Assembly: GCA_964016885.1 (NCBI GenBank)
Contig: OZ024746.1
Location: 32,984,001 to 33,048,000 of the forward strand
Length of the DNA: 64,000 nucleotides
Direction: 5' to 3'
DNA from: Eledone cirrhosa
Lineage: Eukaryota
Of this stretch, positions 5,994 to 37,867 are shown in pieces. Position numbers and translations under genes: made by a program. Position 1 is the stretch's first letter. Every line of letters begins with the position of its first letter. Below the pieces are notes generated by a model. It had not been told where the DNA came from, did not search any database, and was given only the letters and a program-made list of their open reading frames with translations.

Positions 5994-8013
5994 TTACCAA
6001 CTATAGACCTATCACATGTTTACCAACTATAGACCTATCACATGTCTGTCCGTAATGTGGAAACTATTGACAAGCATTATCTCTGAGGAAATCTACCATT
6101 ACCTCAAACAACTTGTTACCGGACGAACAGAAAGGATGCCGAAAGAAGTCCTGTGGTACAAAGGACCAGTTACTTATTGATAAGATGGTAATGAGGAATT
6201 GCAAGAGGAGACACACTGGTCTTGCCATGGGATGGATAGACTACAAAAAGGCATTTGACATGGTGCCTCATTCGTGGATCACCAAAAGCCTAGAGACCTT
6301 CAAGGTGGAAGATAACATCAGACAGTTGTTGGGCAAAAGTATGAAGTCCTGGAAAACAGAGTTAACATCAGCTGGAGAATCATTGGGAGGCGTGAAGATC
6401 AAGAGAGGTATGTTCCAAGGAGATAATCTGTCCCCTCTGTTGTTTGTCCTTGCCCTAATGCTCCTGACCATTATACTGCGAAAAGTGAGAGCAGGATACA
6501 AGTTGGGAAAGGGAGAGCTTACCATCAATCACCTCCTGGACGATCTTAAGCTCTTCGGGAAGAGTGAGGAGTTGGATGTGCTTGTTGACACTGTCCGTAT
6601 TTTCAGCAATGATATATGTATGCAATTTGGTATTAGTCCTTGTGATGAAGAGGGGTAAATTGATCAGAGCAACGGAATCCAGGTACCAACAGGTGAGATG
6701 ATAAAGGAAATTGACACTGAAGAAGTATTTGGGTGTTCTGGAGGCTGATGACATCAAGAACAAAAAAATGAAGGAATTGATAAGATCTGAATACATTCGG
6801 AGACTAAGGAGCGTATTAAAGTCACATCTGAACAGTAGGAATGCCATAAGTGCAGTAAATTCCCGAGCTGTGTCTATTATTAGGTACAGTGCGGGAATTC
6901 TGAGATGGAATGTTGCTGAACAAAAAGAAATGGATAGGAAGCCTAGGAAGCTATTGGCTATCTACAACATGTTCCACAAGAGGAGTGATGTCGATAGACT
7001 CTACTTAAGGAGATCTGAGGGTGGAAGAGGTCTTATCAGCATAGAGGACTGTGTTCAGATGGAGAAAAACAACCTACACAAATACGTGACTGATAGTAAG
7101 GAGCCAATGATCAGAATTGTACTGATGGAGAGGACAATAGACCAGGGGATGTCCAAGGAGGAAATAACAACAAGGAGAAAGAGCAGCCTTCATGAAAAAT
7201 CCCTTTGAGAAAACTGAATTCAGAGATCCACAAACATGGAACTGGTTGAAAAGAGGAGACCTTAAAAAGGCTACAGAAGGAATACTAATGGCTGCGCAAG
7301 AGCAGGCCCTCAAAACGAAGTGGTTGAAACGCCATGTTTACAAGGAGGAGGCTAGCCCACTGTGCAGGATCTGTGGAGAGAGAGAGAGGAGACTGTGGCT
7401 AACATTGTAACCGAGTGTAAACACCTAGCCCAGACTCACTATAAAGGCTGGAGACATGATGTGATGGGCAGGGTGATCCACTGGCACCTATGCAAAGTAA
7501 ACAATTTACCACATTCTGAGAAGTGGTATGAGCATAAGCCAGAGTCGATGATAGAAAACGATCAGGTGAAGGTGCTGTGGGATTTTAGGATACAGACGGA
7601 CAAGAAACTGGAACACAATAGACCTGACCTGGTGGTTTTGGACAAGGAAAAAAGATCGTGCCTGATTGTGGATGTGGCCTGCCCATTCGACACGAGAGTG
7701 CAAGAGAAGGAGAGGGAGAAAATTAACCGATACCAGGACTTAAAGTGGGAGGTAAAAAGGATTTGGAACTGCCATGAAGTCAAAGTGGTCCCGATTGTCA
7801 CAGGCACACTAGGTACTATCTCAAAAAGTTTCCAGGGATGGTTAAAGAAAATTGGTCCCTTCACGCTTTTTGGAACGCTTCAAAAGACATGCTTGCTGGG
7901 AACAGCAAGAACCCTCCGATACGTCCTGAATATCTGAGGCTGCAGGTAGTGGCTTGATATTCATTTCAACAAACTTTCCAGTTAACTAACATCAATGACT
8001 GAGACTCAAAGAA
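5994..8013 (+). mobile_element. 5'-truncated, frameshifted R4/Dong-like non-LTR retrotransposon (family Dong-A)
   Basis: ORF pieces 6113-6658, 6711-7208, 7192-7410 and 7362-7937 are colinear with 15027-18419 ([36 protein letters not shown]); same 3'UTR; (AAT)n both sides. Confidence 0.93.
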
Positions 8014-8026
8014 CAACAACAGCAAC

Positions 8027-8075
<49 letters not shown>

Positions 8076-8234
8076 GTCCAGCCACGCATTTTGGAATACT
8101 TCAAAAGGCATGCTTGCTGGGAACAGCAAGAAACCTCCGATACGTCCTGAATATCTGAGGCTGCAGGTAGCAGCTTCATATTCATTTCAACAAACTTTCC
8201 AGTTAAATAACATCAATGACTGAGACTTAAAGAA
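8076..8234 (+). mobile_element. Very short 3' fragment of Dong-A
   Basis: Matches the ORF end and 3'UTR of 18340-18495; flanked by (AAT)n. Confidence 0.88.
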
Positions 8235-8249
8235 CAATAATAATAATAA

Positions 8250-8887
8250 CCGAATACCTAAACAGGCACGACAGAGCTGCACAATACATACATTGGATAA
8301 TGTGTAAGCATGTTGACCTGCCCCATCAAAAGAATTGGTGGGAGCATCAACCAACTCCCATACTTGAAAAAGATCACATCTCAATCTTGTGGAACTTTAG
8401 CATCCAAACAGACCGAAAAATAGATGAAAATTGACCTGATATAATAGTGAAGGACTTTAAAAAGAGGGTATGCCTGCTAATTGATATGTCTGTTCCAATA
8501 GACAAGAATGTATCTATAAAAACATTTGAAAAATTGAGCAAGTATAAGTACCTGGAGATAGAAATTGGAAAAATGTGGAAATTGAGAACTAAAACAATAC
8601 CAGTGGTTGTAGGCGCTCTAGGAATGATACCTAAGGGGTCTAATGATTACTTATCGCAAATCCCAGGAAACCCGCGTATAGGAGAAATACAAAAGATAGT
8701 ACTAATGGGAACTGCCCATATACTAAGGAAGATTCTGTCAATATAAGTACATCACAAGTCTAAACACCTAAAGATGCATGTGTGTATGTATGTTCTTTCT
8801 TGAGCATGGCGGACCTTGTTGTCTCTTGAGGTCACTGGTTGTGACTTGGTGATAACTCGTATGAACATAAAGCAAAATAAATGCAAC
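8250..8887 (+). mobile_element. 3' fragment of a second R4/Dong-like family (Dong-B), RLE domain
   Basis: EYLNRHDRAAQYIHW..WWEHQP..PDIIVKDFKKRVCLLIDMSVP..EKLSKYKYLEIEI..PVVVGALG..GTAHILRKILSI* (ORF 8447-8746); distinct 3'UTR; (AAT)n both sides. Confidence 0.88.
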
Positions 8888-8943
<56 letters not shown>

Positions 8944-9203
8944 TTTCTTTATTAACCACAAGGGTTTACATAAAGTAGACATTAAGGACAGTGCAGGACA
9001 ATGCAGGACGGTACAAATGGGCATTTCTGCGTGTAAAAAAACAAAAACAGAGGATGTAACAAAAATAACAATGAAAATAACAATGAAAAATTCCCCAATA
9101 GGGGGGAGACTTCGGAGGGACATTTGTGGAGAAAGCCCAGTAAAAAGCCACAATGACCCTGACCACCAAGGCAAGTGCCCTCTCCCAGTTTTCCACCTTT
9201 AGT

Positions 9204-12200
9204 TTACAGATATATACTCAGAGTCGGCCCATTCACTCGGGCCATTCTTGCTTCTCTCACCCATCTTTCAACAAAATGCTGGGAAGAGAGCACTTCCCTC
9301 TCTACTCTGATTTTCCTTTTCAAATGAAATTTGAAAAAGTCAATCAGAGCATCACCGAAGAGGTAAGTGCTCGTCTTCAGCCCTTTCAAACGTGTCCACC
9401 ATACTATCTCTTTCGCCATGGCCACCAGACAGATAAAAACTGCCTGCCCTTCCCGGCTAAAGGAGGAGGGCGGGGCAATCCTCACGATGGACTCAGATGA
9501 TAGCTGGATCCGTCCTAAACGCGACAGCAGGTGTTCGACATAAACCCACAAGTCAGCAATTTTCGGACACTGGACGAGTGCGTGCAGGACGGTTTCGTCG
9601 CCCTGCGCGCATCTCGGACATGCCCGGCTGACGGCACCTCCATGCCTGTAGAGTTTATCCCGAACTGGCAAGGCTCCTCGGTAGCACTGCCAGGCCAGAG
9701 ATTTCTGGAAGTTGTCCATAGGCCCTGGCCCGAAAGTTCTTCCGAAGAGATTGGCTAGTTGATTTTCGTCGACGCCTAGAGTTTCCCCAAGTACGTCGTC
9801 GCTCTTCCCCTCCACTAATCCTCTATAAAACGCCGAGGTGGAGTTTCCACCGATCACATTGCCCGATTGGTCGAGGGCTGTGAGCGCCTGAAGACATTCC
9901 AGTCTCCAGGCGCTCCCTCTCGGTCTTCGCTTGACCCAGGACTGCAGCTCCGTCAAGGAAACGAGCTGGGGAAAAACGCGTCTAGCAAACGGCGACCACA
10001 CCTGATCACCGTCGAGGAAGAGGTGGAGATGTCGTAGCCTGAGCGCGTGCCTGCGCATCATCAGCCACGGCATGCCCAGCCCTCCACGTAGCGGGTGTTG
10101 ACAACAGATGGACCGCCTGACCATCGGAGCACGTCCCTTCCACAAAAAGCGAAAGAGCAAACGCTCCAGCGCAGTCAGGCGAGGCTTAGGACAAGGTACG
10201 ACGGTTAGGCGGTAGCAGATGACAGACGCGATGTACGCGTTAGCCACCTCCGCTCGACCTTTCAGGGATAGCTTCCTCTCCGCCCATTTCTGGGTGAGAG
10301 AAGCCACCCTGCTCGTCACCTCGTCCCAGTTTTTGTCCGTCTGGAGGTCCGGACCGAACCAGACCCCTAGCAATTTAACCGGTCCGTCCGTCCAGCGCCC
10401 GACGACGCTGTTGGACGGCATGGACCTGCCTCTCCAGGTGCCGAGCTGCAGGCCCACTGACTTTTCCTGGTTGATCATTGCTCCTGTCACCGCTTCGTAT
10501 TCTCTTAGTGTAGTGCCGATCGCCTCGATGTGTTTGGCGTTCGACACCACTACGGTGACATCGTCCGCATATGCTGACACGGATCTTCCGCATCCTAGTT
10601 CGCGCGGGACTCCCCTCAACGTCTCCAGTTTGTGCAGTAATGGCTCGAGAGTCAATACGTACAAGAGGGACGAGAGGGGACATCCTTGGCGGACCGAGCG
10701 CATGATGTTGAACGGTTCCGACAGGTGACCGTTCACTCTCACCACAGAGCAGATGTCGCTGTGCATGGCAGCGATCCAGCCTCTGAAGACGGGCCCAAAG
10801 CCAGCCGCCCTCAGGACTGCCGCTAGGTAACGATGGTCGACCCTATCGAAAGCTTTCGACTGATCTAAATTGATCAAGGACCCACCCGTGCCAGGTTCCC
10901 TAGCTACCCTCTCTACGATGTATCGCATGAGGTGGAGGTTGTCGTGGATGGATCTGTCGGGAATGGCGCATGTCTGCGCCTCTCCCACCAGACCACCAAC
11001 GACAAGCGCCAACCTCTTTGCTAGCACCTTGGCCAAAATCTTAAACTCTGTGTTTAGCAGAGTTATGGGCCGGAAATTGTCTATGTTATCCCCCTTGTTC
11101 GGATCCTTTCTCAGCAGTGCCACCGCTCCTCGGCTCACAGAACTGGGAATTCTCCCGTTCTGTTGCCAGTTGCAGTAGACGTCCGCCAAGAGGCCTCCGA
11201 ACAAGTCTGGCATCTGTACGTAAAGTTCATAGGGCAGACCATCCAAACCAGGCGATTTACCCCTTGTGCAGCCAGTCATTGCCTCCCGTACTTCAGCGGC
11301 TGTTATCGGCTTTTCGCAACACCTCGCCTCAGTGGCCGAGAGCCGCGGCAGCCCGTCGAGGTAGACACTAAAGTCCATCCCTCTACCCGGCCCCCCGCTG
11401 CCCCCGAACAGCTGAGCGAAGTGTCGCTGAAAAGTTTCACACATTTGCCCGGGATCGAGTAGCATGCGCCCGTCGTGGTCCACCAAAGACCGGATCGTGG
11501 CTTTGTTGCCACGACGCGCCTCCGCCACTCGGGCCCATTGAACGGCTTTCGTCCCCTCGTGTCTGAGAGCACGCACCCTAGCTCTGACAACGCAGCCTTC
11601 GTGCTTTGCATTGAAGAATTGGTCAAGGGCCAATTTCGCCGCAAGCACGTCGGTCGCAATGCCTTTGCTAAGCGCCTCGTCTAATTTTCTAACTAGTTCT
11701 CCCTCTGCTCTATTTTTCTCTATTGCTAAAGCCTTACTAAACCTAATCGATTCTATTCTAATCGCTCTTTTCAGAGCAAACCACCACTTGTTGTTGACGA
11801 TGGCCCCCGTCAACGCCCGCTTAACTAGTTCGCTAATCCGGTCTCTGTAGGCCTTGCGCGCTGGTAAGGACGCGTTTAGCTTCCAGTAGCCGGGTCCTCG
11901 TCTATGAAGCCTATCTAAGTCAAGCACACAGATCACGAATTTGTGGTCCGTGTAGCTGACTATCTTGAATTGTGGACAGCCTATGCTAGACCTATCTATT
12001 TCCCTACAAAATACTCTATCTAGATATGATCTGGATGACCCTATGCGGTTTGTCCAAGTCCACATTGGCACATTCGGGAAATCCAATCGGTACCTGTCAG
12101 ACAGTTCAAAACGCCTGAGCAGGTTGGTGAGGCTCTTGCACCCTCCACCCCTATCCGCTAATCCCACACAGTCCCAGCGTGCATCTAAGATCCCGTTCCA

Positions 12201-12623
12201 GTCGCCCACTAACACTAAAGAGCGGGACGTTCCAAGAAAGGTCTCCAGACGCCGGAAGAAATCAGGCCGCCCTGCTCCTGTCGGGGCATAGACGGCCACT
12301 AGCCTGAAAGCTTGCCCGTCTCCGCTGGTCACGTCCAGCACCACCAGCTTACCCTCTGGGTCCAGGAAGATGGCCCGTATGGCGAGATCCAAACCTCTCC
12401 GAAAAAGTACAGCAACTCCTCCACCGGATCCAGGACGGCTGGGAGATGCGTACACATCGTAGCCGCCGAAGATCGGTGCGAAGGCCCGTGCTTCGGAGAT
12501 TCTGGTCTCGCTGATGGCCACTACATCTATGTTTAGTGACCTGAGGTCGTTGAGCAGGTGACCCTGCTTCCATGACGACCCCAAGCCACGCGCATTTATG
12601 CTGCCTATTCTGAGTGAGGTCAT
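9204..12623 (-). CDS. Tx1 ORF2: AP-endonuclease + reverse transcriptase + C-terminal Cys/His zinc motif (1139 aa)
   Basis: APE motifs SINARGL, ISETR, VGDWN, SYLDRV, TDH; RT motifs KSPGLDGLPYE, NFRPITLLN, LDQSKAFDRVDH, VRQGCPLS, YADD; CPRC..ETVLHALVQC. Confidence 0.95.
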   Translation of the reverse strand: MTSLRIGSINARGLGSSWKQGHLLNDLRSLNIDVVAISETRISEARAFAPIFGGYDVYASPSRPGSGGGVAVLFRRGLDLAIRAIFLDPEGKLVVLDVTSGDGQAFRLVAVYAPTGAGRPDFFRRLETFLGTSRSLVLVGDWNGILDARWDCVGLADRGGGCKSLTNLLRRFELSDRYRLDFPNVPMWTWTNRIGSSRSYLDRVFCREIDRSSIGCPQFKIVSYTDHKFVICVLDLDRLHRRGPGYWKLNASLPARKAYRDRISELVKRALTGAIVNNKWWFALKRAIRIESIRFSKALAIEKNRAEGELVRKLDEALSKGIATDVLAAKLALDQFFNAKHEGCVVRARVRALRHEGTKAVQWARVAEARRGNKATIRSLVDHDGRMLLDPGQMCETFQRHFAQLFGGSGGPGRGMDFSVYLDGLPRLSATEARCCEKPITAAEVREAMTGCTRGKSPGLDGLPYELYVQMPDLFGGLLADVYCNWQQNGRIPSSVSRGAVALLRKDPNKGDNIDNFRPITLLNTEFKILAKVLAKRLALVVGGLVGEAQTCAIPDRSIHDNLHLMRYIVERVAREPGTGGSLINLDQSKAFDRVDHRYLAAVLRAAGFGPVFRGWIAAMHSDICSVVRVNGHLSEPFNIMRSVRQGCPLSSLLYVLTLEPLLHKLETLRGVPRELGCGRSVSAYADDVTVVVSNAKHIEAIGTTLREYEAVTGAMINQEKSVGLQLGTWRGRSMPSNSVVGRWTDGPVKLLGVWFGPDLQTDKNWDEVTSRVASLTQKWAERKLSLKGRAEVANAYIASVICYRLTVVPCPKPRLTALERLLFRFLWKGRAPMVRRSICCQHPLRGGLGMPWLMMRRHALRLRHLHLFLDGDQVWSPFARRVFPQLVSLTELQSWVKRRPRGSAWRLECLQALTALDQSGNVIGGNSTSAFYRGLVEGKSDDVLGETLGVDENQLANLFGRTFGPGPMDNFQKSLAWQCYRGALPVRDKLYRHGGAVSRACPRCAQGDETVLHALVQCPKIADLWVYVEHLLSRLGRIQLSSESIVRIAPPSSFSREGQAVFICLVAMAKEIVWWTRLKGLKTSTYLFGDALIDFFKFHLKRKIRVEREVLSSQHFVERWVREARMARVNGPTLSIYL

Positions 12624-12658
12624 GTTTAAAATAGAGTGGAAAAGATGGGAAAGACCAC

Positions 12659-14758
12659 TTACCGTATTTTTGGTAGAGGAGGGATGGTTTTTACATCCCT
12701 TTTCACTTGATCGTCTGGTGAAGGGACCGTTGAATCGTCCCTTCGGCTGGTCGTCGGCTCTTCTAAGAGAATGTCTGAATATACTCTTCGATTAATGGTT
12801 CCTCCTAGGTCCCTGAAATCACCAACTGCGTTGGGAAATTTCGTTTTAATGTTTGTGTATTGTTTCTGTGCTATTTTTAGCAGTCTTATGTTAGTTGGCG
12901 TTTTGATTGGTGCTGGTATTATGTAGTCCTGTTGTGAAATGTCTGTGTGTTCAATTATGTAAGTCATTAGTTTCTTGTTGTGTGTGTTTATTGCCGTGCA
13001 TTTGTTTTTCTGGGGGTGGGGTGTGGTTCTGCTATTTTCTTGTCGTTGTTGCTGGGTGTGTGTGTTTTGTTGTTGTGTTTGCGATGTTGGTGCTTGTGGT
13101 GGTGGTGTTGAAGGTGTTGTTGGCGGTGGGGTTGTCGCCGGTGGTGATGGTGGTGCTGGTGTGGGTGGTGATGGTGTTGGTGGTGTTGCTGCTGTGGGTC
13201 TCTTTGCAGTAGACTTTACCCTTTTCTCATTTCTTTCCTCCCTTTTCAAAGGCGACGATGCGCTGCTTCTGCGTTTGTGCCTTCTTGAGACCTTTTGCCA
13301 TCCCTCTCCCACCTCACACTCCATGTCTGATTCTGTAAGGTCGGGGAGGGGTACCAGCTCCACTCTTTCACTTGTTGTTGTTGGTGATGTTTGCACTGGA
13401 GTCTCTGTTGCAGCTGCATTTGGTATTGCTGTTGTTGTTGTTAATATTTCCACTGCTGCTGCTGTCTTTGATTTCCGTGGAGTGGGTATGGGTGCCACGG
13501 ACCTATCGTTCCTGGTTGCCGCTTGTCCTGTTGCTGGTAGCCGTGGAACCGGATTCGGGAGGAGGGGGGTTTTCTCCTTTCTCAGGGTCTTCTCGTTGCA
13601 GAAGGCCCTGAGGTGAGTCTTCGATCCACAGCGAAAGCATTTCGGGCGTTTGCCCTCAACACTTATGGGCAGTTGAGTGCCGTTATCGAAGTCTATCACA
13701 TCCGGGATAGCTTCGATGCACTCCTGGTTGGTTTGGATTAGCATCTCAATGGAGGAGCCGACCCAATCTTCTCTTACTTTTTTCTGTACTTGCAGTACAG
13801 TTGTTTTGTCCTCGATTCCGACGAGGACAGACGCGGCCAGCCAAGAAGGGGTCATTCCGGGGGGGACGTGGGTCAGTTTGACCCTCACAATTTTTTGCCC
13901 GCAGTAGGAGGGCACCAACACCATTTCCTCGCTCCTTAGGGTCACTACTGATTGGGCCTTTGCCTCCTGGGGTGTGGCAAAAAGTACGTCTACGGTGGCG
14001 TATTTTTTGCCTCGGGTGATGTGCGTTTTCCTCTGCCACACAGACCCCAAGGCTTTTTGTATTTGGGCCTCTGTGGCTCTTTCCACCCTACGGGATTTTG
14101 TACTTACTGTACGGTACGTGACCGTACAGTGCTCTTGGGTTTCGAAAAAATTTTTCGCTGCCTTGCAGATTGCTCGGTGTCCGTTCTTTGTCACCATCTT
14201 CTTCGCTTCCTCTAATTCCTCATTTGTTATGAGGATTGTTTCCAGGTTTTTCGCAATACCTGCAAATGAGATTGGTTTTTCTCTGCTGTTGTTGTTGTCG
14301 TCAGAGCTGCTGGTACTTTTGTTGTTGCTGCAGGTACTACGACTACTGCCTCCGCCGCTGTTGCTGTGGTTGTTGTTGGTGTTGCTGCTGCTAATGCTGT
14401 TGTTGTTTATGCTGCTGGTGATGCTGTTGCGGCTGCTACTGTTGTTTTCATTGTCACTGTTGCTGTTGTTATTACGGCTGCTACTGCTATTATTCCTGAC
14501 GTCAGACGAATGAACTGGGTTTTCGTATTTCCCGCACACCTGTTTCGTCGCTGTCGTCGTCGTCGTGGAGAAACCTTGCACGCTTTGCACGAGACTTTTC
14601 TTTTCTTTCGTCGCTTGCGAAAGAGAAGGTAGGGAGAGAGACACATTTAAAGAAGGGAGGGAGAGAGACAATCTTCTCTCTCCTGTAGTGATGATTGAGG
14701 AAGAAGAAGACGGAATGAGTGGGAGTGACGTATGAAATTTTTTTTTTTTGGTAGCCAT
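12659..14758 (-). CDS. Tx1 ORF1, gag-like nucleic-acid-binding protein with CCHC zinc knuckle (~699 aa from the ATG at 14758)
   Basis: CFRCGSKTHLRAFC (CX2CX4HX4C), Asn/Ser- and Pro/Thr-rich low-complexity tracts, basic WQKVSRRHKRR; ends 35 nt before the ORF2 ATG. Confidence 0.88.
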   Translation of the reverse strand: MATKKKKFHTSLPLIPSSSSSIITTGERRLSLSLPSLNVSLSLPSLSQATKEKKSLVQSVQGFSTTTTTATKQVCGKYENPVHSSDVRNNSSSSRNNNSNSDNENNSSSRNSITSSINNNSISSSNTNNNHSNSGGGSSRSTCSNNKSTSSSDDNNNSREKPISFAGIAKNLETILITNEELEEAKKMVTKNGHRAICKAAKNFFETQEHCTVTYRTVSTKSRRVERATEAQIQKALGSVWQRKTHITRGKKYATVDVLFATPQEAKAQSVVTLRSEEMVLVPSYCGQKIVRVKLTHVPPGMTPSWLAASVLVGIEDKTTVLQVQKKVREDWVGSSIEMLIQTNQECIEAIPDVIDFDNGTQLPISVEGKRPKCFRCGSKTHLRAFCNEKTLRKEKTPLLPNPVPRLPATGQAATRNDRSVAPIPTPRKSKTAAAVEILTTTTAIPNAAATETPVQTSPTTTSERVELVPLPDLTESDMECEVGEGWQKVSRRHKRRSSASSPLKREERNEKRVKSTAKRPTAATPPTPSPPTPAPPSPPATTPPPTTPSTPPPQAPTSQTQQQNTHTQQQRQENSRTTPHPQKNKCTAINTHNKKLMTYIIEHTDISQQDYIIPAPIKTPTNIRLLKIAQKQYTNIKTKFPNAVGDFRDLGGTINRRVYSDILLEEPTTSRRDDSTVPSPDDQVKRDVKTIPPLPKIR

Positions 14759-14990
14759 GTTTTTTTGTTTAAAATGAAATTTTGGGTACAAAACCCCAAT
14801 AACTGATTATTTAACCCCGAAGGGCCAAATAACGGACAGAAAGACCCCTCTCACGAGGAGGAGGGTGTCTTTATCAACAATTTGGTTCAAGTTTTAAACA
14901 ATTTACAATTGTTTTAAGGGTTAAAAATTACTATACCTTACAGAGCCGAGCCTCCGTCAACCATGGCATTCAATAATAATAATAATAATA

Positions 14991-17900
14991 AACAGTTCGA
15001 ACATAAACAGTTCGAATAACGGTGAAATGGAGACTAGAACGTCATGTGACAGACTCTCACCCAACAGGTGTCCCCTGGCTCAGCAGCAGGAACCTGACTG
15101 TCAACCAAATACTGCTGATGTTGGAGGAAGGAGAAGCAGGAAAGGGGCCAGAACCAACTGGACGAAAGAATTGAATAGAACTGTTATGCAATGCTACCTG
15201 AAAAGTAACCCCAAGGAGAGGGGCTACAGGAGACGGATGCATAACATCTGGAACGAGATTGGTTTATTTAAATTAGATGAACAAAAATTGGCCGGGCAGG
15301 CTCGGGTAATAAGAACTAATGGGTGGATAAGCGAGCTGGAACTGGAGGAACTGAGCAGAGAGAATGGCTTGGAGATGGCGGGTGTAGTATGCCAGACAAG
15401 CGAGCCGGTGGGAAATGAAGGTGAGGAGGTCCTGAGAACGGAGGAACCACCCGAAGCAGACAATGATCTGAGTACTGAGATAAATAATACCTGGAACAGA
15501 GATACGGCCACTGAGGAGATGAATGCTGACGGGCTAGGACAAGATTCGGTTGACATCCTAAATTTAGTGGTAGATGAATTGAACAATGATAGTGGGAGAC
15601 CTATGAACCTAAGATTTGTAGACAGGAAAAAGTTAAAAGAAACAACAGCTAAGGTAAACAAAGTCATCCCATACCTTGAGGCGAGGAGTCTTCACCAGTG
15701 CAACAATATCCTCAAAGCAACAGCAAATACGGTGAGGAAACTACTTGGTATAAAAGCGAGAGGAAACAACAGACAAGAAAGAGCAGAGCCGTGGTGGAAG
15801 AAGCGACTGAGTGGGCAAATCGGGGAAATGAGAAATGACATAGGAAAGCTTGAGTCACTACTGAATGGGACACTAAAAAACATAGGCACTAAAAATAGAC
15901 TGGAAATAAAATACAAAACTAGGAGTAAAAAGCTAAATATTATCATAGAGGAATTGAAGCAACGCATTGTAGCAAAGAGTGCAAAAATCAGGCGATACGA
16001 GAACAGAGTCAGTCAGTATAAACAGAACCGCATGTTCGACAACAACCAGAAGATGCTGTTTGGACAGCTTGAGGGCAAAGAAAGAGGCAACGACTTGATC
16101 CCTGGGGCGGAGCAAACTAAAACATTCTGGAGAGGAATATGGGAGCAGGATGTTAGACACAATGCCCAGGCAGGGTGGATTGAGACAGTACAGAGGGAGA
16201 TCGGTGAGCAGGCACAGCAACAGACTGATTTGAGTATCAAAGTTGAAACTCTTAAGGGGCAAGCCAAAAAACTAACCAACTGGAAATCACCAGGCCCAGA
16301 TGGTGTGCAGGGGTATTGGATTAAACATCTAACATCCCTCCACCCGAAGCTGACGGCCATGTTCAATGACTGCTTGGTGTCGGGTGAGGTGCCAGAGTGG
16401 TTGACAAAAGGTACCACAGTTCTGATAATGAAAGACCGAATCAAGGGTAATGATGCTACCAACTATAGACCTATCACATGTCTGCCCGTAATGTGGAAAC
16501 TGTTGACGAGCATTGTGTCTGAGGAAATCTACCATCACCTCCACACAAACAACTTGTTACCGGACGAACAGAAAGGATGCCGAAAGAAGTCACGTGGTAC
16601 AAAGGACCAGTTGCTTATTGATAAGATGGTAATGGGGAATTGCAGGAGGAGACACACTGATCTTGCCATGGGATGGATAGACTACAGAAAGGCATTTGAC
16701 ATGGTGCCTCATTCCTGGATCACCAAAAGCCTGGAGATCTTCAGGGTGGCAGATAACATCAGACAGTTGCTAGGCAGGAGTATGGGGTCCTGGGAGACAG
16801 AGTTGACATCAACTGGAGTATCCTTGGGAAGCGTGAAGATCAAGAGAGGTATCTTCCAGGGAGATAGCCTGTCCCCTCTGTTGTTTGCCCTTGCCCTGAT
16901 GCCCTTGACCATTATGCTGCGAAAAGTGAGAGCAGGATACAAGTTGGGAAGGGGAGAGCTTACCATCAATCACCTCCTCTTCATGGACGATCTTAAGCTC
17001 TTCGGGAAAAGTGAGAAGGAGTTGGATGTGCTTGTTGACACTGTCCGTATTTTCAGCAGTGATATATGTATGCAGTTTGGTATTGGTAAATGTGGAGTCA
17101 TTGTGATGAAGAGGGGTAGGTTGAGCAGAAGTAACGGGATCCAGATACCAACAGGTGAGATGATAAAGGAAATTGACTCTGAGGAAGGATACAAGTATTT
17201 GGGCGTTCTGGAGGCTGATGGCATAAAGAACAAAAAAATGAAGGAATTGTTAAGAACTGAATACATTCGGAGAGTAAGGAGCGTATTGAAGTCACATCTG
17301 AACAGCAGAAATGCCATAAGCGCAGTAAATTCCCGAGCTGTGTCTATTATTAGGTACAGTGCGGGAATTCTGAGATGGAATGTTGCTGAACAGAAAGAAA
17401 TGGATAGGAAGACTAGGAAGCTATTGACTATCTACAACATGTTCCACAAGAGGAGTGATGTCGATAGACTCTACCTAAGGAGATCTGAGGGTGGAAGAGG
17501 TCTTATCAGCATAGAGGACTGTGTTCAGATGGAGAAAAACAACCTATACAAATACGTGACCTATAGTAAGGAGCCAATGCTCAGAACTGTACTGAAGGAG
17601 GGGACAGTAGGCCAGGGGATGTCCAGGGAGGAAATAACATCAAGGAGGAAGAGCAGCCTTAAGGGAAAACCCCTTCATAGTACCTTCTTTGAGAAAACTG
17701 AATTTAGAGATCCACAGACATGGAACTGGTTGAGAAGAGGAGACCTCAAAAAGGCTACAGAAGGAATGCTAATGGCTGCGCAGGAGCAGGCCCTCAAAAC
17801 GAAGTGGTTGAAGCACCATATCTACAAGGAGGAGGCTAGCCCACTGTGCAGGATCTGTGGAGAGAGAGAGGAGACTGTGGCTCACATTGTGTCCGAGTGT

Positions 17901-18495
17901 AAACACCTAGCCCAGACCCACTATAAGGGCTGGAGACGCGATGTGATGGGCAGGGTGATCCACTGGCACCTGTGCAAAGTAAACAATCTACCACATTCTG
18001 AGAAATGGTATGAGCATAGGCCAGAGGCGGTGATGGAGAACAATCAGGTGAAGGTGCTGTGGGATTTTAGGATACAGACGGACAAAAAACTGGAACACAA
18101 TAGACCTGACCTGGTGGTTGTGGACAAAGAAAAAAGATCGTGCCTGATTGTGGATGTGGCCTGCCCGTTCGACACGAGAGTGCAAGAGAAGGAGAGGGAG
18201 AAAATTAACCGATACCAGGACCTAAAGTGGGAGGTGAAAAGGATTTGGAACTGCCATGAAGTCAAAGTGATCCCGATTGTCATAGGCGCACTGGGGACTA
18301 TCTCCAAAAGTTTCCAGGGATGGTTAAAGAAAATCGGCCCCTTCACGCTTTTTGGAACGCTTCAAAAGGCATGCTTGCTTGGAACAGCAAGAACCCTCCG
18401 ATACGTCCTGAATATCTGAGGCTGCAGGTAGTGGCTTGATATTCAATCCAACGGACTTTCCAGTTAACCAACATCAATGACTGAGATTCAAGGAA
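14991..18495 (+). mobile_element. Near-full-length R4/Dong-like RLE non-LTR retrotransposon (Dong-A)
   Basis: Single long ORF, short 3'UTR, (AAT)n at both ends, consistent with the known TAA-repeat targeting of Dong elements. Confidence 0.93.
15027..18419 (+). CDS. R4/Dong polyprotein: RT + CCHC zinc finger + restriction-like (PD..D..K) endonuclease (1130 aa)
   Basis: [99 protein letters not shown]. Confidence 0.95.
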   Translation: METRTSCDRLSPNRCPLAQQQEPDCQPNTADVGGRRSRKGARTNWTKELNRTVMQCYLKSNPKERGYRRRMHNIWNEIGLFKLDEQKLAGQARVIRTNGWISELELEELSRENGLEMAGVVCQTSEPVGNEGEEVLRTEEPPEADNDLSTEINNTWNRDTATEEMNADGLGQDSVDILNLVVDELNNDSGRPMNLRFVDRKKLKETTAKVNKVIPYLEARSLHQCNNILKATANTVRKLLGIKARGNNRQERAEPWWKKRLSGQIGEMRNDIGKLESLLNGTLKNIGTKNRLEIKYKTRSKKLNIIIEELKQRIVAKSAKIRRYENRVSQYKQNRMFDNNQKMLFGQLEGKERGNDLIPGAEQTKTFWRGIWEQDVRHNAQAGWIETVQREIGEQAQQQTDLSIKVETLKGQAKKLTNWKSPGPDGVQGYWIKHLTSLHPKLTAMFNDCLVSGEVPEWLTKGTTVLIMKDRIKGNDATNYRPITCLPVMWKLLTSIVSEEIYHHLHTNNLLPDEQKGCRKKSRGTKDQLLIDKMVMGNCRRRHTDLAMGWIDYRKAFDMVPHSWITKSLEIFRVADNIRQLLGRSMGSWETELTSTGVSLGSVKIKRGIFQGDSLSPLLFALALMPLTIMLRKVRAGYKLGRGELTINHLLFMDDLKLFGKSEKELDVLVDTVRIFSSDICMQFGIGKCGVIVMKRGRLSRSNGIQIPTGEMIKEIDSEEGYKYLGVLEADGIKNKKMKELLRTEYIRRVRSVLKSHLNSRNAISAVNSRAVSIIRYSAGILRWNVAEQKEMDRKTRKLLTIYNMFHKRSDVDRLYLRRSEGGRGLISIEDCVQMEKNNLYKYVTYSKEPMLRTVLKEGTVGQGMSREEITSRRKSSLKGKPLHSTFFEKTEFRDPQTWNWLRRGDLKKATEGMLMAAQEQALKTKWLKHHIYKEEASPLCRICGEREETVAHIVSECKHLAQTHYKGWRRDVMGRVIHWHLCKVNNLPHSEKWYEHRPEAVMENNQVKVLWDFRIQTDKKLEHNRPDLVVVDKEKRSCLIVDVACPFDTRVQEKEREKINRYQDLKWEVKRIWNCHEVKVIPIVIGALGTISKSFQGWLKKIGPFTLFGTLQKACLLGTARTLRYVLNI

Positions 18496-18535
18496 TAACA
18501 ATAACAACAATAATAATAATAATAATAATAATAAT

Positions 18536-18857
18536 GTTTTCTTTATTAACCACAAGGGTTCACATAAAGTAGACATTAAGGACAGTACAGGACAATACAG
18601 GACGGTACAAATGGGCATTTCTGCGTGTAAAAAAACAGAGGTTGAAATAAAATAACAAAGAAAAATTCCCCAATAGGGGGGAGACTTCCAAGAGACATTT
18701 GTGGAGAAAGCCTATTTAAAAGACCACAGTGGCCCTGACCACCAGGGCAAGTGCCCTCTCCCAGTTTTCCACCTTTAATTTACAGACACATACTCAGAGA
18801 AGGCCCATTCATTCGGGCCATACTTGCTTCTCTCACCCATCTTTCAACAAAATGCTG
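18536..18857 (-). mobile_element. Short 5'-truncated Tx1-A copy (ORF2 end + 3'UTR)
   Basis: Near-identical to 8942-9281; (AAT)n on both sides. Confidence 0.9.
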
Positions 18858-18869
18858 AATAATAATAAT

Positions 18870-19399
18870 GGTTTATTTATTGGCCACAAGGGCTGACATC
18901 CAGAAAAACATTACAGACGGCACAGGACGGCACAGGACGGTACGATGTGGGTTTTGTGCGTGTAAATATTTTTATTATTTATATAAGAAAAGGTTTACTT
19001 TGCCTTTCATCCTTACGGGGTCGATAAAATAAAGTACTAGTAATACACTGGGATAATTGCTGGCCTTGTGCCAAAAGTAGAAACAATTATTTATATAAGA
19101 AAAGAAAAAAAAAACAGAAATATATAGAAACATATATATATATAAACAATAAAAATGAAAATTGAAACAATGAAAAATTCCCCAATAGGGGGGAAACCTC
19201 TGATTGTTACTCGTGGCGAAAACCACACAAAAGACCTCGGTCACCCTGACCACCAGGGCAAGCGCCCTCTCTCAATTTTTCCATTTCTCAAACTACAGAC
19301 TTATATTCAGAGCGGTCCCGTTTACTCGAACCATTCTCGCTACATTCACCCAGAGATTTATACGCTACATTCTCGCTACATTCACAACAGAGATTTATA
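18870..19399 (-). mobile_element. 3' fragment of a related Tx1 family (Tx1-B), interrupted by a SINE
   Basis: Colinear but diverged 3'UTR/ORF2 end (AAAAATTCCCCAATAGGGGG, CCCTGACCACCAGGGCAAG); 3' end AATAAATAAACC-(ATT)n. Confidence 0.8.
18993..19085 (+). mobile_element. 5'-truncated SINE family 1 with 19-bp TSD
   Basis: TSD ATTATTTATATAAGAAAAG at 18974-18992 and 19086-19104. Confidence 0.88.
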
Positions 19400-19688
19400 T
19401 TTCTAACGTCATAAACAATTTTACAAACTCTTACATAAATCATTCAATGAACTACCTGTATTTACCAGATTGTAAAGCAACCATTATTCTTGGAGACTCA
19501 TATTGTTCATATAATATTTTTCTGTTATTTATTCATTTCTGCCTTTGTAGTTTGAATACATTTTTCATAAATATTTAATGTTGCTTCTGTGTATTTTTAC
19601 GATATCTTATTTTTCATATCTGAAATATTGTGATATTTTGTATATTCGTTTTATTGTTGATATTATTGATGTTAGAAGACAAAGTAAA

Positions 19689-19723
<35 letters not shown>

Positions 19724-19942
19724 GGCGACCTACGAGGAAATCGTATTATCGTGAGCTCCGCAAAGGTTTGTTGTTTTCAGTTGTTTCAAATTTCCAGTTA
19801 TGGAAAATGTTTGTTGTTAAGTGTTTGTTGTTAAGTTCACATATATTGCTTTCTGAAAAGGAGACAAAAAAATATTGGGGCCTTGAGCCCCAAATTTAAA
19901 CTTTTTATTTATCAAACAAAATATTTCTTTGAAAAAAAAGAC

Positions 19943-21973
19943 ATGGACGACAAATTTACTGTTTTTAACAGACCAACAACCTCCTCCCCTACCACCAACA
20001 CCAACACCATTGTAAGCCTTGCCACAGTTGCCAACACTGAAAATATAATTAATAGCAGCCTCAATTATTTAGATTTGCCGCATAAAGGCATGGATTTCCC
20101 GCCATTACCAAAAACTGCAGGTATTAAAGCCGCCACCCCACAACCACAATGTCAAAAAGAACAATGAATACCACTGATAACACCACCACAACCATCACCA
20201 CCACCACAGTGACAACAGACCCCCCCCCCCGCAAAAAAAAAATTATTATCTCGTGACATCGAAATGGATTAACGCAGAATCGACTCTTCCCCGCCGAACT
20301 CCACTGACACCACCACCACCTCCACCACAACTGAAACTAAAAATAACAATAACAACAACAGCAACAACAACAATGAGAATAACAACAACAACATCAACAC
20401 CACCGCAAAACAAAATGTGTCGTTTGCCAAAGCAGCCAAGAAAAGCGAAACAATCGAGGTAAGTCAGGATGAATTAAATGAAGCCAAACGAATGTTAAAA
20501 CAAGATGGGTACAGGGTCAGCCTCACCCCCACCTAATAAAATGGAGCATCGGCGCCTATGCACCGTGTCATATCGGACGATAAACACAAAATCACGCCGA
20601 GTGGAACGGGCATCCGAGTCCCAAATACAAAATGCTTTGGGACATGGGTGGGCAAAAAACCCCCACATCAGACGTGGGCAGAAATATGGAACTGTGAACG
20701 TGTTCTTTGGAACACCACAGGAAGCCAGAGAGCACTCCATGGCCCCATTAAGAAGCGACGACTTCATACTCGTCCCAAGCTATTGTAGTCAGAGACTCGT
20801 GAAGATCAGGTTGACCCACGTTCCACCGGCCATCCAAATTCCCTGGCTAATGGCTGCCGTCCTCGCCGGCATCGAGGCCAACACGAAAATAATCGAAGTA
20901 ACAAAAGAAAAGCAGGAGAACTGGTCAGGATCTGGGATGGAGCTCCTGATCCAAGCGGACCAAAAAAGCATTGAGGAAATTCCAGAGGTGATAGACCTCA
21001 CTGACGGCAGACACCTCACCGTAATCGTTGAGGGTAAAAAGCATATATGTGTCGTTTGTGGCGAAGGAACCCACCTAAAGGCTTTCTGCCCTCAGGCTAA
21101 AAAGTTGAGGCCACCTCTCTTAACCACCCCAGTGACTCAACCATCAACACCATCAGCAGCAGAAATGGCAGCAACAACTGTAGCAGCAACTGTAGCAACA
21201 ACTGTAGCAGCAACAACCCCAGCAACAGTAGCAAAACCAACACCACCATCACCCATAGCGCCAGAACTAGCACCAGCGCCTCCACCATCCACCACGCCAC
21301 AATCAAAATCAACGCCTGTGGAGGATTTTCCACTCCCCGACTTATCGCAACTGGAGATAGATTGTGACGACGAGGAGTGGGAAACTGTATTAGGAAAAAA
21401 GAAAAAAAGAAAAAGAAACCAAAAAAGAAAAGAATTCTCTTCCTTCCCCCTCCCAAAACAAAATACAGAGGGAAACAAATAAACTATCAAACAAAAAAGT
21501 TAGGACAGACATGCCGCCATCCACACCGGCATCACCAACCCCATCACCCCAAACACCAACACCATCACCATCATTAACCCCAACACCACCATCACCTACA
21601 CCACAAAAGTCACCAAAATGCGAAACAGAAACAAACCCACAACAAACGCAAACAAAACAAAACAACCAAAACGATACACACTATACAGCATTAAGTTTGA
21701 ACAACAACCAATTATTACACTACATCCAACACAACACCAGCATCACAGAAAAAGACTACACAACAACCCCAAAATTCACACCACCTCCACACATACAAAT
21801 CACTCGCATCACACAGAAAACGTACATGACACTAAACCAAAAAAATCCCCAAAGACATCGGAGACTTCCGACAAGCACTCTCCAGGAGGATTTATAAGGA
21901 CATCCTTCCTGAGGAGGCCACAAGCAGTGAAAAGGATGGAGAAACTGTCCTTCCTCTACGAGAAGTAAGGTAA
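19943..21973 (+). pseudogene. Frameshifted Tx1 ORF1 (variant type)
   Basis: Core piece 20505-21482 aligns with copy-1 ORF1 (TKSRRVERA, LVPSYC, LTHVPP, CVVCGEGTHLKAFC); ends VLPLREVR* versus IPPLPKIR* in copy 1. Confidence 0.82.
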
Positions 21974-22007
21974 ATGGTGTTTCCCATCTTTTCCACTCCT
22001 TTTCAAC

Positions 22008-25000
22008 ATGAGCTCACTCAGAATAGGCAGCATAAATGAGCCTGGCTTGGGGTCGTCATGGAAGCAGGGCCACCTGCTCAACGACCTCAGGTCACTAAAC
22101 ATAGATGTAGTGGCCATCAGCGAGACCAGAATCTCCGAAGCACGGACCTTCGCACCGATCTTCGGTGGCTACGAGGTGTACGCATATCCCAGCCGTCCGG
22201 GATCGGGGGGAGGAGTTGCTGTGCTTTTTCGGAGAGGTTTGGATCTTGCCATACGGGCCATCTTCCTGGACCCAGAAGGTAAGTTGGTGGTGCTGGAGGT
22301 TACCAGCGGAGACGAGCAAGCTTTCAGGTTAGTGGCCGTCTATGCCCCAACAGGAACAGGGCGGCCTGATTTCTTCCGGCGTCTGGAGACCTTTCTTGGA
22401 ACGTCCGGCTCTTTAGTGTTAGTGGGCGACTGGAACGGGATCTTAGATGCACGCTAGGACTGTGTGGGATTAGTGGATAGGGAGGAGGGTGCAAGAGTCT
22501 CACCAACCTGCTCAGGCGTTTTGAACTGTCTGACAGGTACCGATTGGATTTCCCGTATGTGCCAATGTGGACTTGGACAAATCGCATAGGGTCATCCAGA
22601 TCATATCTAGATAGAGTATTTTTTAGGGAAATAGATAGGTCTAGCATAGGCTGTCCACAATTCAAGATAGTCAGCTACACGGACCACAAATTCGTGATTT
22701 GTGTGCTTGACTTAGATAGGCTCCATAGACGAGGACCCGGCTACTGGAAGCTAAACGCGTCCTTACCAGCGCCCAAGGTCTACAGAGACCGGATTAGCGA
22801 ACTAGTTAAGCGAGAGTTCACGGGGGCCATCGTCAACAACAAGTGGTGGTTTGCTCTGAAAAGAGCAATTAGAATAGTGTCCATTAGGTTTAGTAAGGCT
22901 TTAGCAATAGAGAAAAATAGAGCAGAGGGAGAATTTGTTAGAAAATTAGACGAGGCGCTTAGCAAAGGCATCGCGACCGACGTACTTGCGGTGAAATTGG
23001 CCCTTGACCAATTCTTCAATGCAAAGCAAGAAGGCTGCGTTGTCAGAGCTAGGGTGCGTGCTCTCAGACACGAGGGGACGAAAGCCGTTCAATGGGTCTT
23101 TGGTGGACCACGACGGGCGCATGCTACTCGATCCCGGGCAAATGTGTGAAGCTTTTCAGCGACACTTCGCACAGTTGTTCGGGGGCAGCGGCGGGCCGGA
23201 TCGAGGGATGGACTTTAGTGTCTACCTCGACGGACTGCCGCGGCTCTCGGCCACTGAGGCGGAGTGTTGCGAAAAGCCGATAACAGCCGCTGAAGTACGG
23301 GAGGCAATGACTGGCTGCACAAGGGGTAAATCGCCTGGTTTGGATGGTCTGCCCAATGAACTTTACGTATAGATGCCAGACTTGTTCGGAGGCCTCTTGT
23401 CGGCCGTCTACTGCAACTGGCAACAGAACGGGAGAATTCCCAGCTCTGTGAGCCGAGGAGCGGTGGCACTGCTGAGAAAGGATCCGAACAAGGGGGATAA
23501 GATAGATAATTTCAGGCTCATAACTCTGATAAACACAGAGTTCGAGATTTTGGCCAAGGTGCTAGCAAAGATGTTGGCGCTTGTCGTTGGTGGTCTGGTG
23601 GGAGAGGCGCAGACATGCGCCATTCCTGACAGATCCATCCACGACAACCTCCACCTCATGCGATACATCGTAGAGAGGGTAGCTAGGGAACCTGGCACGG
23701 GTGGCTCCTTTATCAATTTAGATCAGTCGAAAGTTTTCGATAGGTTCGACCATCGTTACCTAGTGGCAGTCCTGAGGGAGGCTGGCTTTGGGCCCGTCTT
23801 CAGAGGCTGGATCGCTGCCATGCACAGCGACATCTGCTCTGTGGTGAGACTGAACGGTCACCTTTCGGAACCGTTTAACATCATGCGCTCGGTCCGCCAA
23901 GGATGTCCCCTCGCGTCCCTCTTGTACGTATTGACTCTCGAGCCATTACTGCACAAACAGGAGACGTTGAGGGGCGTCCCGCGCGAACTAGGATGCGGAA
24001 GATCCATGTCAGCATATGCGGACTATGTCACCGTAGTGGTGTCGAACGCCAAACACATCGAGGCGATCGGCACTACACTAAGAGAATACAAAGTGGTGAC
24101 AGGAGCAATGATCAACCAGGAAAAGTCAGTGGGCCTGCAGCTCGGCACCTGGAGAGGCAGGTCCATGCCGTTCAACAGCGTCGTCGGGCGCTGGACGGAC
24201 GGACCGGTTAAATTGCTAGGGGTCTGGTTCGGTCCGGACCTCCAGACGGACAAAAACTGGGACGAGGTGACGAGCAGGGTGGCTTCTCTCACCCAGAAAT
24301 GGGCGGAGAGGAAGCTATCCCTGAAAGGTCGAGCGGAGGTGGCTAACGCGTACATCGCGTCCGTCATCTACTACAGCCTGACCGTCGTACCTTGTCCTAA
24401 GCCCCGCCTGACTGCGCTGGAGCGTTTGCCTTTTGCTTTTTGTGGAAGGGACGCGCTCCGATGATCAGGCGGTCCATCTGTTGTCAACACCCGCTACGTG
24501 GAGGGCTGGGCATGCCGTGGCTGATGATGCGCAGACAAGCGCTCAGACTACAACATCTCCACCTCTTCCTCGACGGTGATCAGGTGTGGTCGCCGTTTGC
24601 TAGACACGTCTTTCCCCAGCTCGTCTCCTTGACGGAGCTGCAGTCCTGGGTCAAGCAAAGACGAGAGGGAGCGCTTGGAGACTGGAATGTCTTCAGGCGC
24701 TCACAGCCCTCGACCAAGCGGGCAATGTGATCGGTGGAAACTCCACCTTGGCGTTCTATAGGGGATTAGTGGAGGGGAAGAGCGACGACGTACTTGGAGA
24801 AACTCTAGGCGTCGACGAAAATCAACTAGCTAATCTCTTCGGAAGGACTTTCGGGCCGGGGCCTATGGACAACTTCCAGAAATCCCTGGCCTGGCAGTGC
24901 TACCGAGGAGCTTTGCCAGTTCGAGATAAACTCTACAGGCATGGAGGTGCCGTCAGCCGGGCATGTCCGAGATGCGCGCAGGGCGACGAAACCGTCCTGC

Positions 25001-25380
25001 ACGCACTCGTCCAGTGTCCGAGCATTGCTGACTTGTGGGTTTATGTTGAACAACTGCTGTCACGTGTAGGACGGATCCAGCTATCAGCTGAGTCCATCGC
25101 GAGGATTGCCCCACCCTCTTCCTTTAGCCGGGAAGGGCAAGCAGTTTTTATCTGCCTGGTGGCCATGGCGAAAGAGATAGTATGGTGGACACGTTTTAAA
25201 GGGCTGAAGACGAGCACTTACCTCTTCGGTGATGCCCTGATTAACTTTTTCAAATTTCATTTGAAAAGGAAAATCAGGGTAGGGAGGGAAGTGCTCTCTT
25301 CCCAGCATTTTGTTGAAAGATGGGTGAGAGAAGCAAGTATGGCCCGAGTGAATGGGCCTACTCTGAGTATGTGTCTGTAA
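22008..25380 (+). pseudogene. Disrupted Tx1 ORF2
   Basis: Stops at 22455-22457 and 23370-23372, a ~44-nt deletion near 23095, several frameshifts, and YADD changed to YADY. Confidence 0.92.
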
Positions 25381-25659
25381 ATTAAAGGTGGAAAACTGGG
25401 AGAGGGCACTTGCCCTGGTGGTCAGGGTCACTGTGGTCTTTTAATGGGCTTTCTCCACAAATGTCCCTCGGAAGTCTACCCCCTATTGGGGAATTTTTCA
25501 TTGTTATTTTTATTACATCCTCTGTTTTTTTTACACGCAGAAATGCCCATTTGTACCGTCCTGTATTATCCTGTACTGTCCTTAATGTCTACTTTATGTA
25601 AACCCTTGTGGTTAATAAAGAAAGCATTATTATTATTATCATTTTTATTCTTGTTTTTG

Positions 25660-37268: not shown

Positions 37269-37454
37269 GGGCGGTAAATTGGCAATATCGGTAGAGGGTC
37301 GGACGCCATGCTTTGACGCATAGAGTTACGGCCCTTGCCATTCTGAGTTCAAATCCCGCCGAGGTTAACTTTGCCTTTCATCCTGACGGGGTCGATAAAA
37401 TAAAGTACCAGTAATGTACTGGGTAATTGCTGGCCTTGTGCCAATAGTAGAAAC
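37269..37454 (+). mobile_element. SINE family 1, full length, 18-bp TSD
   Basis: TSD AATTATTTTAATGAATTA at 37251-37268 and 37455-37472. Confidence 0.92.
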
Positions 37455-37867
37455 AATTATTTTAATGAATTATTAACCAGGTAACGTAAGTAATCCATAT
37501 ATCGGTAGGTTAAACAACGAAACTGCTGTTGACATTATTCTCAAAGCTCTTTAATCACACTTTGCCTGACCTTATCAATGACGTTTTACCCTTTATATTT
37601 CTTTCGTGTCTTCAGTTTGCCTTCAGCTATACTTACTCTTTAATTTTTTCTCATTGTTTTCAGCATTCTGTGTTTCTTTTATGCATGCGTTTCTATGCGT
37701 GTATATGAGTTTGTATGTGTCTGTGTTTTTATTTAGTATGTGTGAATGTGTGTTTGTGTGTGTGTTTGTGTATGTGTGTGTGTGAATGCCAACGCATGTG
37801 TATTTTCTATAACCTTTTCTTTCTATGCACATTGCAGGAATTAATTCTGTAGTTAATATCAAAACTA

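Follow-up and report, generated by a model that had tools for sequence, protein, structure and literature searches.

A likely and probably undescribed pairing of a SINE with Tx1-like LINEs in Eledone cirrhosa through a common 3' end and insertion target

In Eledone cirrhosa, a SINE and the Tx1-like LINEs of the same genome end in a common motif, CTTGT followed after a spacer of mostly 16 nt by ATTAT, and the SINE shares both its target site and its strand with three of the Tx1 families (Tx1-A, Tx1-B and Tx1-C). These two lines, the tail and the target with its strand, point to a partnership that we regard as fairly supported; recognition of the hairpin within the shared tail is plausible but unproven. 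We consider it likely that ATT-targeting Tx1 elements mobilise the SINE, which their ORF2 protein (ORF2p) would copy in trans. The SINE-Tx1 pairing is real and probably undescribed, and Tx1-driven SINEs and stringent L1-clade pairs are each already known.

Elements of the window

The window is the whole 64-kb stretch of DNA that was analysed. Its relevant features are given below with their strands.

8942..14971, minus: full-length Tx1-A element with (ATT)n on both sides; 3' hairpin at 8954-8966, then AATAAA
9204..12791, minus: intact ORF2 with AP endonuclease, reverse transcriptase (RT) and zf-RVT; L1 group
12659..14806, minus: ORF1, 715 codons from stop to stop, one CCHC-like motif by eye; no match in Pfam
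9085-9100 and 18730-18745, minus: upstream C-rich/G-rich hairpin of Tx1, found also at loci L066, L079 and L096
14925..18496, plus: element with one ORF, which carries RT and ends in a C-terminus of the restriction-like endonuclease type, presumably R4/Dong-like (label from protein motifs); same microsatellite as Tx1, opposite strand
18536..18857, minus: Tx1-A 3' fragment, 322 nt, within the (ATT)4 run behind Tx1-B
18870..19390 (upper bound approximate), minus: 5'-truncated Tx1-B copy, split by the SINE; hairpin at 18883-18893
about 19296-19352, minus: C-terminus of the ORF2 of this Tx1-B copy, whose 3' UTR is also present
18974..18992, plus: left copy of a 19-bp target-site duplication, starting with ATTAT
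18993..19085, plus: focal SINE copy, 5'-truncated short form, antisense in the 3' UTR of the Tx1-B copy
19061..19073, plus: candidate SINE 3' hairpin with a 4-bp stem in this copy and a 5-nt loop at 19065-19069; within the MFE, z +0.41
19086..19104, plus: right copy of the duplication, which opens with the ATTAT previously taken for a tail
19724..25625, plus: second full-length Tx1-A-type copy with broken frames, after (ATT)11 at 19691-19723; hairpin at 25601-25613
37270..37455, plus: near full-length SINE reference copy with A-box-like and B-box motifs; 17-bp duplication starting with ATTAT

Positions 6000-25630 form a nest of microsatellite-targeting retroposons inserted in each other's flanks. 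Tx1 elements occupy the ATT strand and R4/Dong-like ones the AAT strand, a pairing that recurs in many of the loci L001-L030. The recurrence of Tx1 3' ends about 6 kb apart was considered as a sign of LTR-like terminal repeats and rejected, since neighbouring ends differ by subfamily and are nested insertions.

The best PDB match of the intact ORF2 is human L1 ORF2p (E 6e-53, vs 1e-21 for R2). In a tree that kept 16 of 17 RT rows, one being too short, its RT falls with named plant L1-type RTs (98/98), separate from the genome's own RTE-, CR1- and RLE-like RTs. The elements also show further features of the Tx1 clade, namely an ORF1 with an ORF2 that carries AP endonuclease, RT and a C-terminal zinc finger, and target-specific insertion. 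We call them Tx1-like based on L1-group placement, architecture and target specificity, in a tree without named Tx1 references. The names of this genome's other families (RTE, CR1, R4/Dong and Penelope) are our presumption from protein motifs. Targets differ by family, being (ATT)n for Tx1-A, -B and -C and (ATCT)n for Tx1-D and -E; copies of the latter two at L066, L103, L110, L122, L126 and L133 keep the 3' hairpin with the target switched to (ATCT)n.

Near-identical ORF2 and 3' UTR sequences are joined to different 5' ends and ORF1 regions in the two full-length window copies (8942-14971 vs 19724-25625) and at L274, L275 and L281. The similarity of Tx1 copies breaks near reference position 2266, with four different 5' starts, and such differing 5' ends over alike ORF2 and 3' UTR suggest exchange of the 5' module. 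Additionally, Tx1-A to -D carry a second, stronger C-rich/G-rich hairpin further upstream, at a distance of about 110-190 nt from the 3' end. This larger hairpin of the 3' UTR is missing from the SINE and could be a second RNA signal.

The SINE is non-coding and measures about 190 nt in its short form or 215 nt in its long form. No tRNA match was returned for it by ARAGORN or Rfam. It presumably resembles the octopus CORE-SINEs OR1/OR2 in its tRNA-type head, CORE-like middle and very high copy number. A SINE body lies upstream in 205 of the 219 exact-tail matches in 1.45 Mb. Divergences overlap among the short-form SINE (4.2%, n=127), Tx1-A (2.2%, n=18), Tx1-C (7.4%, n=5) and the CR1-like families CR1-3 (6.3%, n=17) and CR1-2 (7.0%, n=4). 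The ages of SINE, Tx1 and CR1-like copies thus do not tell partners apart.

The shared tail and its hairpin

Sixteen matches to CTTGTN{14,18}ATTAT occur in the window against 2.61 +/- 1.59 by chance, a number reached by none of 100 shuffles, and the sequences and coordinates that the first-pass annotation gave for this motif in SINE and Tx1 ends are correct. Fifteen of the 16 have a 16-nt spacer (11 SINE ends, 3 Tx1-A ends and 1 Tx1-B end), and the match at 39219 is a chance occurrence. Across 79 random 10-kb stretches (790 kb), the distance from loop to ATTAT peaks at 16 nt with 82 matches, flanked by 10 at 15 nt and 10 at 17 nt; echoes at 19, 22 and 25 nt derive from additional ATT units. 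The spacer is 16 nt in 155 of 232 SINE tails, 50 of the 232 being without a readable ATTAT. The spacing had been described as invariant, which holds at 16 nt for Tx1-A, Tx1-B and the SINE but not for Tx1-C (17 nt) or Tx1-D (about 16-18 nt, by eye). The loop had also been called invariant and is not, as CCTGT, CTAGT and CTGGT are present in other Tx1 copies. Genome-wide (3.0 Gb), we counted 149,109 exact SINE tails, 22,498 Tx1-type ends of all families (6 matches for a control pattern), 7,754 exact Tx1-A ends and 1,423 exact Tx1-C ends. The exact Tx1-B end of the window has 2 matches in the genome, and its stem type makes up 10 of the first 100 Tx1-type ends.

Tails were compared by 3'-anchored alignment, with ATTAT removed, of 15 LINE ends (5 Tx1, 10 non-Tx1) to three SINE tail forms, each with 500 shuffles. 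Tx1-B and Tx1-C were the best of the 15 against all three forms (z 3.2-4.3; p 0.002, the lowest value that 500 shuffles allow), and z was 2.1-3.3 for Tx1-A and -D and 1.2-1.8 for Tx1-E. The match is short, about 25 nt, and partly A-rich. Nine of the 10 non-Tx1 ends were not significant, the exception being CR1-2 with its tandem tail cut off (z 1.7-2.7). The search for a better RTE, CR1 or L2 partner that had been proposed as a check gave no longer or better 3'-anchored match among the sampled families, with one CR1-like family close in local alignment.

Several candidates were rejected as partners. In RTE-like families the 3' end consists of another motif and (TGA)n, with no tail match; R4/Dong-like elements use the same microsatellite on the opposite strand, likewise with no tail match; and CR1-1 has a (TTGAA)n tail and no match. 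A recurring short fragment that ends in ATT repeats and then (TA)n (L032, L036, L055 and L105), sometimes with an inverted copy, is without the loop motif; we presume that it is possibly Penelope-related. Many short elements, at L052, L036, L044, L078 and other loci, carry the RTE-like 3' end and (TGA)n, and probably represent another SINE or non-autonomous family that is partnered by an RTE element.

The true partner might instead be an unsampled or extinct LINE with a closer tail, the likeness to Tx1 being due to chance or to an older common origin. The LINE families were drawn from RT-bearing elements in 1.45 Mb (0.05% of the genome), a CR1-like search and targeted loci, and several RT fragments in this sample have no recoverable 3' end; the shortness of the Tx1 match also leaves room for such a LINE. 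However, no non-SINE element with the SINE tail was found among the 219 exact matches, the 14 without a SINE body showing no LINE 3' UTR by eye. The SINE stem followed by AATAAA has 13 genome-wide matches, and the 6 inspected were SINEs. Four recurring families of the sample have ends with (ATT)3 or more, and among them the loop is confined to Tx1; furthermore, the driver of 150,000 recent copies would itself probably be abundant. We judge an unsampled partner to be improbable.

CR1-2 (L200-L241) is a young CR1-like family, most copies being 95-100% alike, with at least 2,479 exact ends. It inserts into (TA)n and has a 10-nt tandem tail; two copies have open frames of 1432-1456 codons, and there is a 1045-aa ORF. 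A partnership of CR1-2 with the SINE would run through a TGGC/GCCA stem with a CTGG loop, and this 4-bp stem is identical to that of half of the SINE copies. In local alignment to one SINE form CR1-2 scores 30 vs 31 for Tx1-C, and CORE-SINEs of other molluscs are paired with L2/CR1 in the available text of two reports (PMC4824008, PMC4758252). The tandem tail, however, is missing from the SINE, the match at the real CR1-2 end is not significant (p 0.37-0.59), and that to the older SINE form is weaker (p 0.08-0.13). Furthermore, all 31 inspected CR1-2 ends run into TA/CA-type repeats, whereas 104 of 185 SINE ends precede ATTATT and 9 of 185 a TA run; TA runs hold 28x more bases than ATT runs. 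CR1-2 is thus a very doubtful partner.

The hairpin itself is best defined in Tx1. Among 65 Tx1 ends that were located by an anchor lying outside it, 62 keep all three inner pairs, and the RNAalifold consensus consists of the identical three pairs. In a hand tally of the first 100 genome-wide Tx1-type ends, with stem positions left free, pair 3 was kept in 93 (G-C 52, A-T 39, G-T 2, unpaired 7) and pair 4 in 61. The earlier statement that the stems always pair is not confirmed: just three pairs are kept, with exceptions, and of the 11 SINEs in the window 6 have TGGC/GCCA. The outer stem partner of the SINE is A in 106 and T in 92 of 205 sampled tails, about half of the copies having no fourth pair.

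Covariation was scored on 14 hand-picked types, 10 of the 16 Tx1 types and 4 SINE types; 3 of the 6 single-copy Tx1 types left out have a broken pair. In this set 89% of cells pair, none of 500 shuffles reaches the score and slid controls are lower, a result that rests on about two independent switches and is inflated because the shuffle test ignores relatedness. One clean pair switch is present in Tx1, G-C/A-U with a G-U form, and the flipped pair of the SINE could equally well result from the loss of a single base in both arms. With 170 nt of upstream sequence, the pair probability is 0.75 in Tx1-A, 0.95-0.99 in Tx1-C and 0.46 in Tx1-D, against 0.10-0.28 in the SINE, and none of the SINE tails folded better than shuffles. 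A structured 3' end, as proposed in the first-pass annotation, is supported as a 3-bp structure in Tx1 and weakly supported in the SINE. SINE subfamilies vary in the middle of the spacer and keep the loop, the 16-nt length, the terminal GAAANC and CCTTGTGCC. Behind the stem, each Tx1 type has AATAAA, which is missing from the SINE, and older long-form SINEs end in GAAACC or GAAATC, as Tx1 does.

ATTAT as the insertion target

ATTAT had been read as an encoded tail, a reading that we abandon. It opens the 19-bp target duplication at the focal SINE copy (18974-18992 = 19086-19104) and does so in most copies with a detectable duplication. Full-length Tx1 copies have (ATT)n at their beginning and at their end. 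Genome-wide, ATTAT follows 122,531 of the 149,109 exact SINE tails (82%). Because ATTAT is target DNA, the 16 nt measure how far the loop lies from the point at which reverse transcription starts; they do not lead to an encoded tail.

In 1.45 Mb, 79 of 185 SINE ends have a duplication of at least 11 bp, counted if it starts within 2 nt of the element end. We analysed 70 of these and dropped 9 that had an earlier SINE or Tx1 end as target or an implausible length. The duplications are mostly 12-19 bp long (n=70), and the pre-insertion site reads A59 T66 T68 A68 T65 of 70, that is, ATTAT(T). Where the target deviates (ACTAT, GTTAT), the deviation is present in both copies of the duplication. Immediately 5' of the site, purines account for 8 of 70 bases, vs 37% at 7,862 genomic ATTAT sites (p 1.5e-6). 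Since this base lies beyond the nick and cannot pair with the RNA, the bias points to a preference of the endonuclease. L1 endonuclease cuts at a pyrimidine-purine step on the nicked strand, and the bias at SINE sites likewise gives such a step.

All 13 Tx1 copies that reach their 5' end begin after (ATT)3 or more, 3 of the 13 having defined the reference by that rule; 4 of these starts directly follow a SINE end, and 3 follow a Tx1 end. A SINE is found within 70 nt of 11 of 93 Tx1 ends, at loci picked partly by the Tx1 pattern, vs 4.5% of 2,429 ATTATT sites and 1.4% of all sites. Tx1 duplications measure 15 bp in L092, possibly up to 17-21 bp in seven other copies and at most 5-10 bp in four full-length copies (L274-L277), and do not clearly match those of the SINE. 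A control gave duplications in 1 of 57 RTE elements and is weak, many elements being longer than the 300-nt search range. Together, the earlier proposal that Tx1 mobilises the dominant SINE gains from the tail match and from the shared target site and strand, a line that it had missed, but not clearly from the Tx1 duplications.

The target also bears on CR1-3, which has a true (ATT)n tail and would be the partner if the repeat alone mattered. Eight CR1-3 ends lie before (ATT)3 or more in the sample. Its end has no similarity to the SINE tail (z -0.7 to 0.0), it adds ATT units of its own whereas the SINE adds none and duplicates 12-19 bp, and no junction duplication was found in 16-17 ends, where matches were tandem copies or internal repeats. 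We find a CR1-3 partner scarcely credible.

At the target of Tx1-D and -E, the picture is different, as just 3 of the 149,109 SINE tails stand before ATCTATCT. Either Tx1-D/E were silent during the burst, or AUUAU pairing is required, or the hairpin is not the determinant. Since Tx1-D/E have the hairpin with hardly any SINE at their target, the choice of enzyme does not depend on the hairpin alone.

Proposed mechanism and relation to known systems

In the mechanism that we propose, the Tx1 endonuclease would nick the bottom strand between ATAAT and R of 5'-ATAATR-3'. Priming by the freed end would then occur on the SINE RNA, about 16 nt 3' of the loop, and might be aided by pairing with AUUAU read through from the flank of the source copy; a second nick 12-19 nt away would generate the duplication. 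ORF2p may bind the CUUGU hairpin together with the terminal GAAANC motif, like stringent L2 enzymes; this recognition is the weakest step of the proposal, and we give it slightly less than an even chance. The SINE may have acquired its tail from a Tx1-B/C-like ancestor and then lost AAUAAA, a poly(A) signal for which a pol III RNA has no need. More tentatively still, a Tx1 lineage without poly(A) dependence would use as its ruler a minimal 3-bp CUUGU hairpin placed at a fixed distance of 16-17 nt from where priming begins, and a tRNA/CORE SINE that captured this tail, and through it the site-specific endonuclease, would thereby have undergone the largest SINE expansion of the genome, into ATTAT.

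In the main alternative, Tx1 is the partner without recognising the hairpin. The enzyme would then be relaxed, its specificity being conferred by the endonuclease and by AUUAU, which would pair with the nicked target; the conserved Tx1 end would serve 3' processing around AAUAAA, and the SINE tail would be a template-switch relic. SINE subfamilies, however, keep CCTTGTGCC, GAAANC and the 16-nt length though a poly(A) signal is of no use to a pol III RNA, and we consider a relaxed enzyme rather unlikely. It would agree with the AATAAA after the stem of every Tx1 type, the weak hairpin of the SINE, the near lack of SINEs at the Tx1-D/E target, and crocodilian SINEU, inferred to use Tx1 although they share no 3' end with it and have only poly(A) (PMC4494074).

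Mobilisation of SINEU by Tx1 (Tx1-Mar) was inferred from a shared target preference, and other crocodilian Tx1 families target microsatellites (Kojima 2015, PMC4494074). The present case is similar in both respects. In the available text of that paper, SINEU begin with snRNA heads, are poly(A)-tailed and have a 3' end that no LINE shares, whereas the SINE described here is tRNA-type, shares a structured 3' end with Tx1, is without poly(A) and targets ATTAT/(ATT)n.

Stringent L1-clade pairs have been described for ZmSINE2/3 and LINE1-1_ZM in maize and for SINEX-3_CR and L1-1_CR in Chlamydomonas (Ohshima 2012, PMC3472496; PMC3747384). The view given in the first-pass annotation, that L1-group elements usually depend on poly(A), thus already has published exceptions. 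As in the present case, an L1-clade LINE and a SINE have a 3' hairpin in common, with a conserved UCU loop and 3' flank and a stem that varies with compensatory changes. Those pairs, as described in the portions available, belong to plants and algae and share about 50-80 nt with a solid hairpin (-10.8 to -17.7 kcal/mol), whereas the present pair is animal and Tx1-like, shares about 25 nt with a 3-bp stem and inserts site-specifically. Neither a Tx1 partner nor an octopus SINE appears in Table 1 of PMC3747384 (58 pairs), in the form available.

For UnaL2/UnaSINE and ZfL2-1/2-2, assays demonstrated that a 3' hairpin is recognised in a loop-specific, stem-general way (Hayashi 2014, PMC4176376). 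This is the model that we propose for Tx1 and the SINE. The tails of stringent L2 elements are RNA-encoded repeats, whereas the ATTAT described here is target DNA.

For octopus, tRNA-Core SINEs, L1-Tx1, Dong-R4, CR1 and RTE elements have been reported (PMC8967140, PMC13282606), and OR1/OR2 are named as octopus CORE-SINEs in PMC4824008 and PMC4758252. The available portions of those two papers give no partner LINE for OR1/OR2, and those of PMC3531059, PMC5786205, PMC8967140, PMC13282606 and PMC10294476 give none for octopus CORE-SINEs. In line with the suggestion that the pair was undescribed, our search of the article text available found no tail-sharing pair of Tx1 and a tRNA-SINE, although an earlier mention may exist.

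If the proposal is true, the reading of a hairpin would be unusual for the poly(A)-reading L1 group and would provide an animal case of stringent recognition, in a Tx1-SINE pair that is both tail-sharing and target-specific. It would also name the engine for a SINE with over 149,000 near-identical ends; the octopod SINE expansion is known, and its partner is unstated in the literature searched. By adding an animal lineage, the pair bears on the ancestral stringency of the L1 group, which Ohshima proposed based on plants. Finally, the intact ORF2 of the window and the natural variants (stems, 16 vs 17 nt, and ATT vs ATCT with the same loop) would make RNA recognition and target choice separable.
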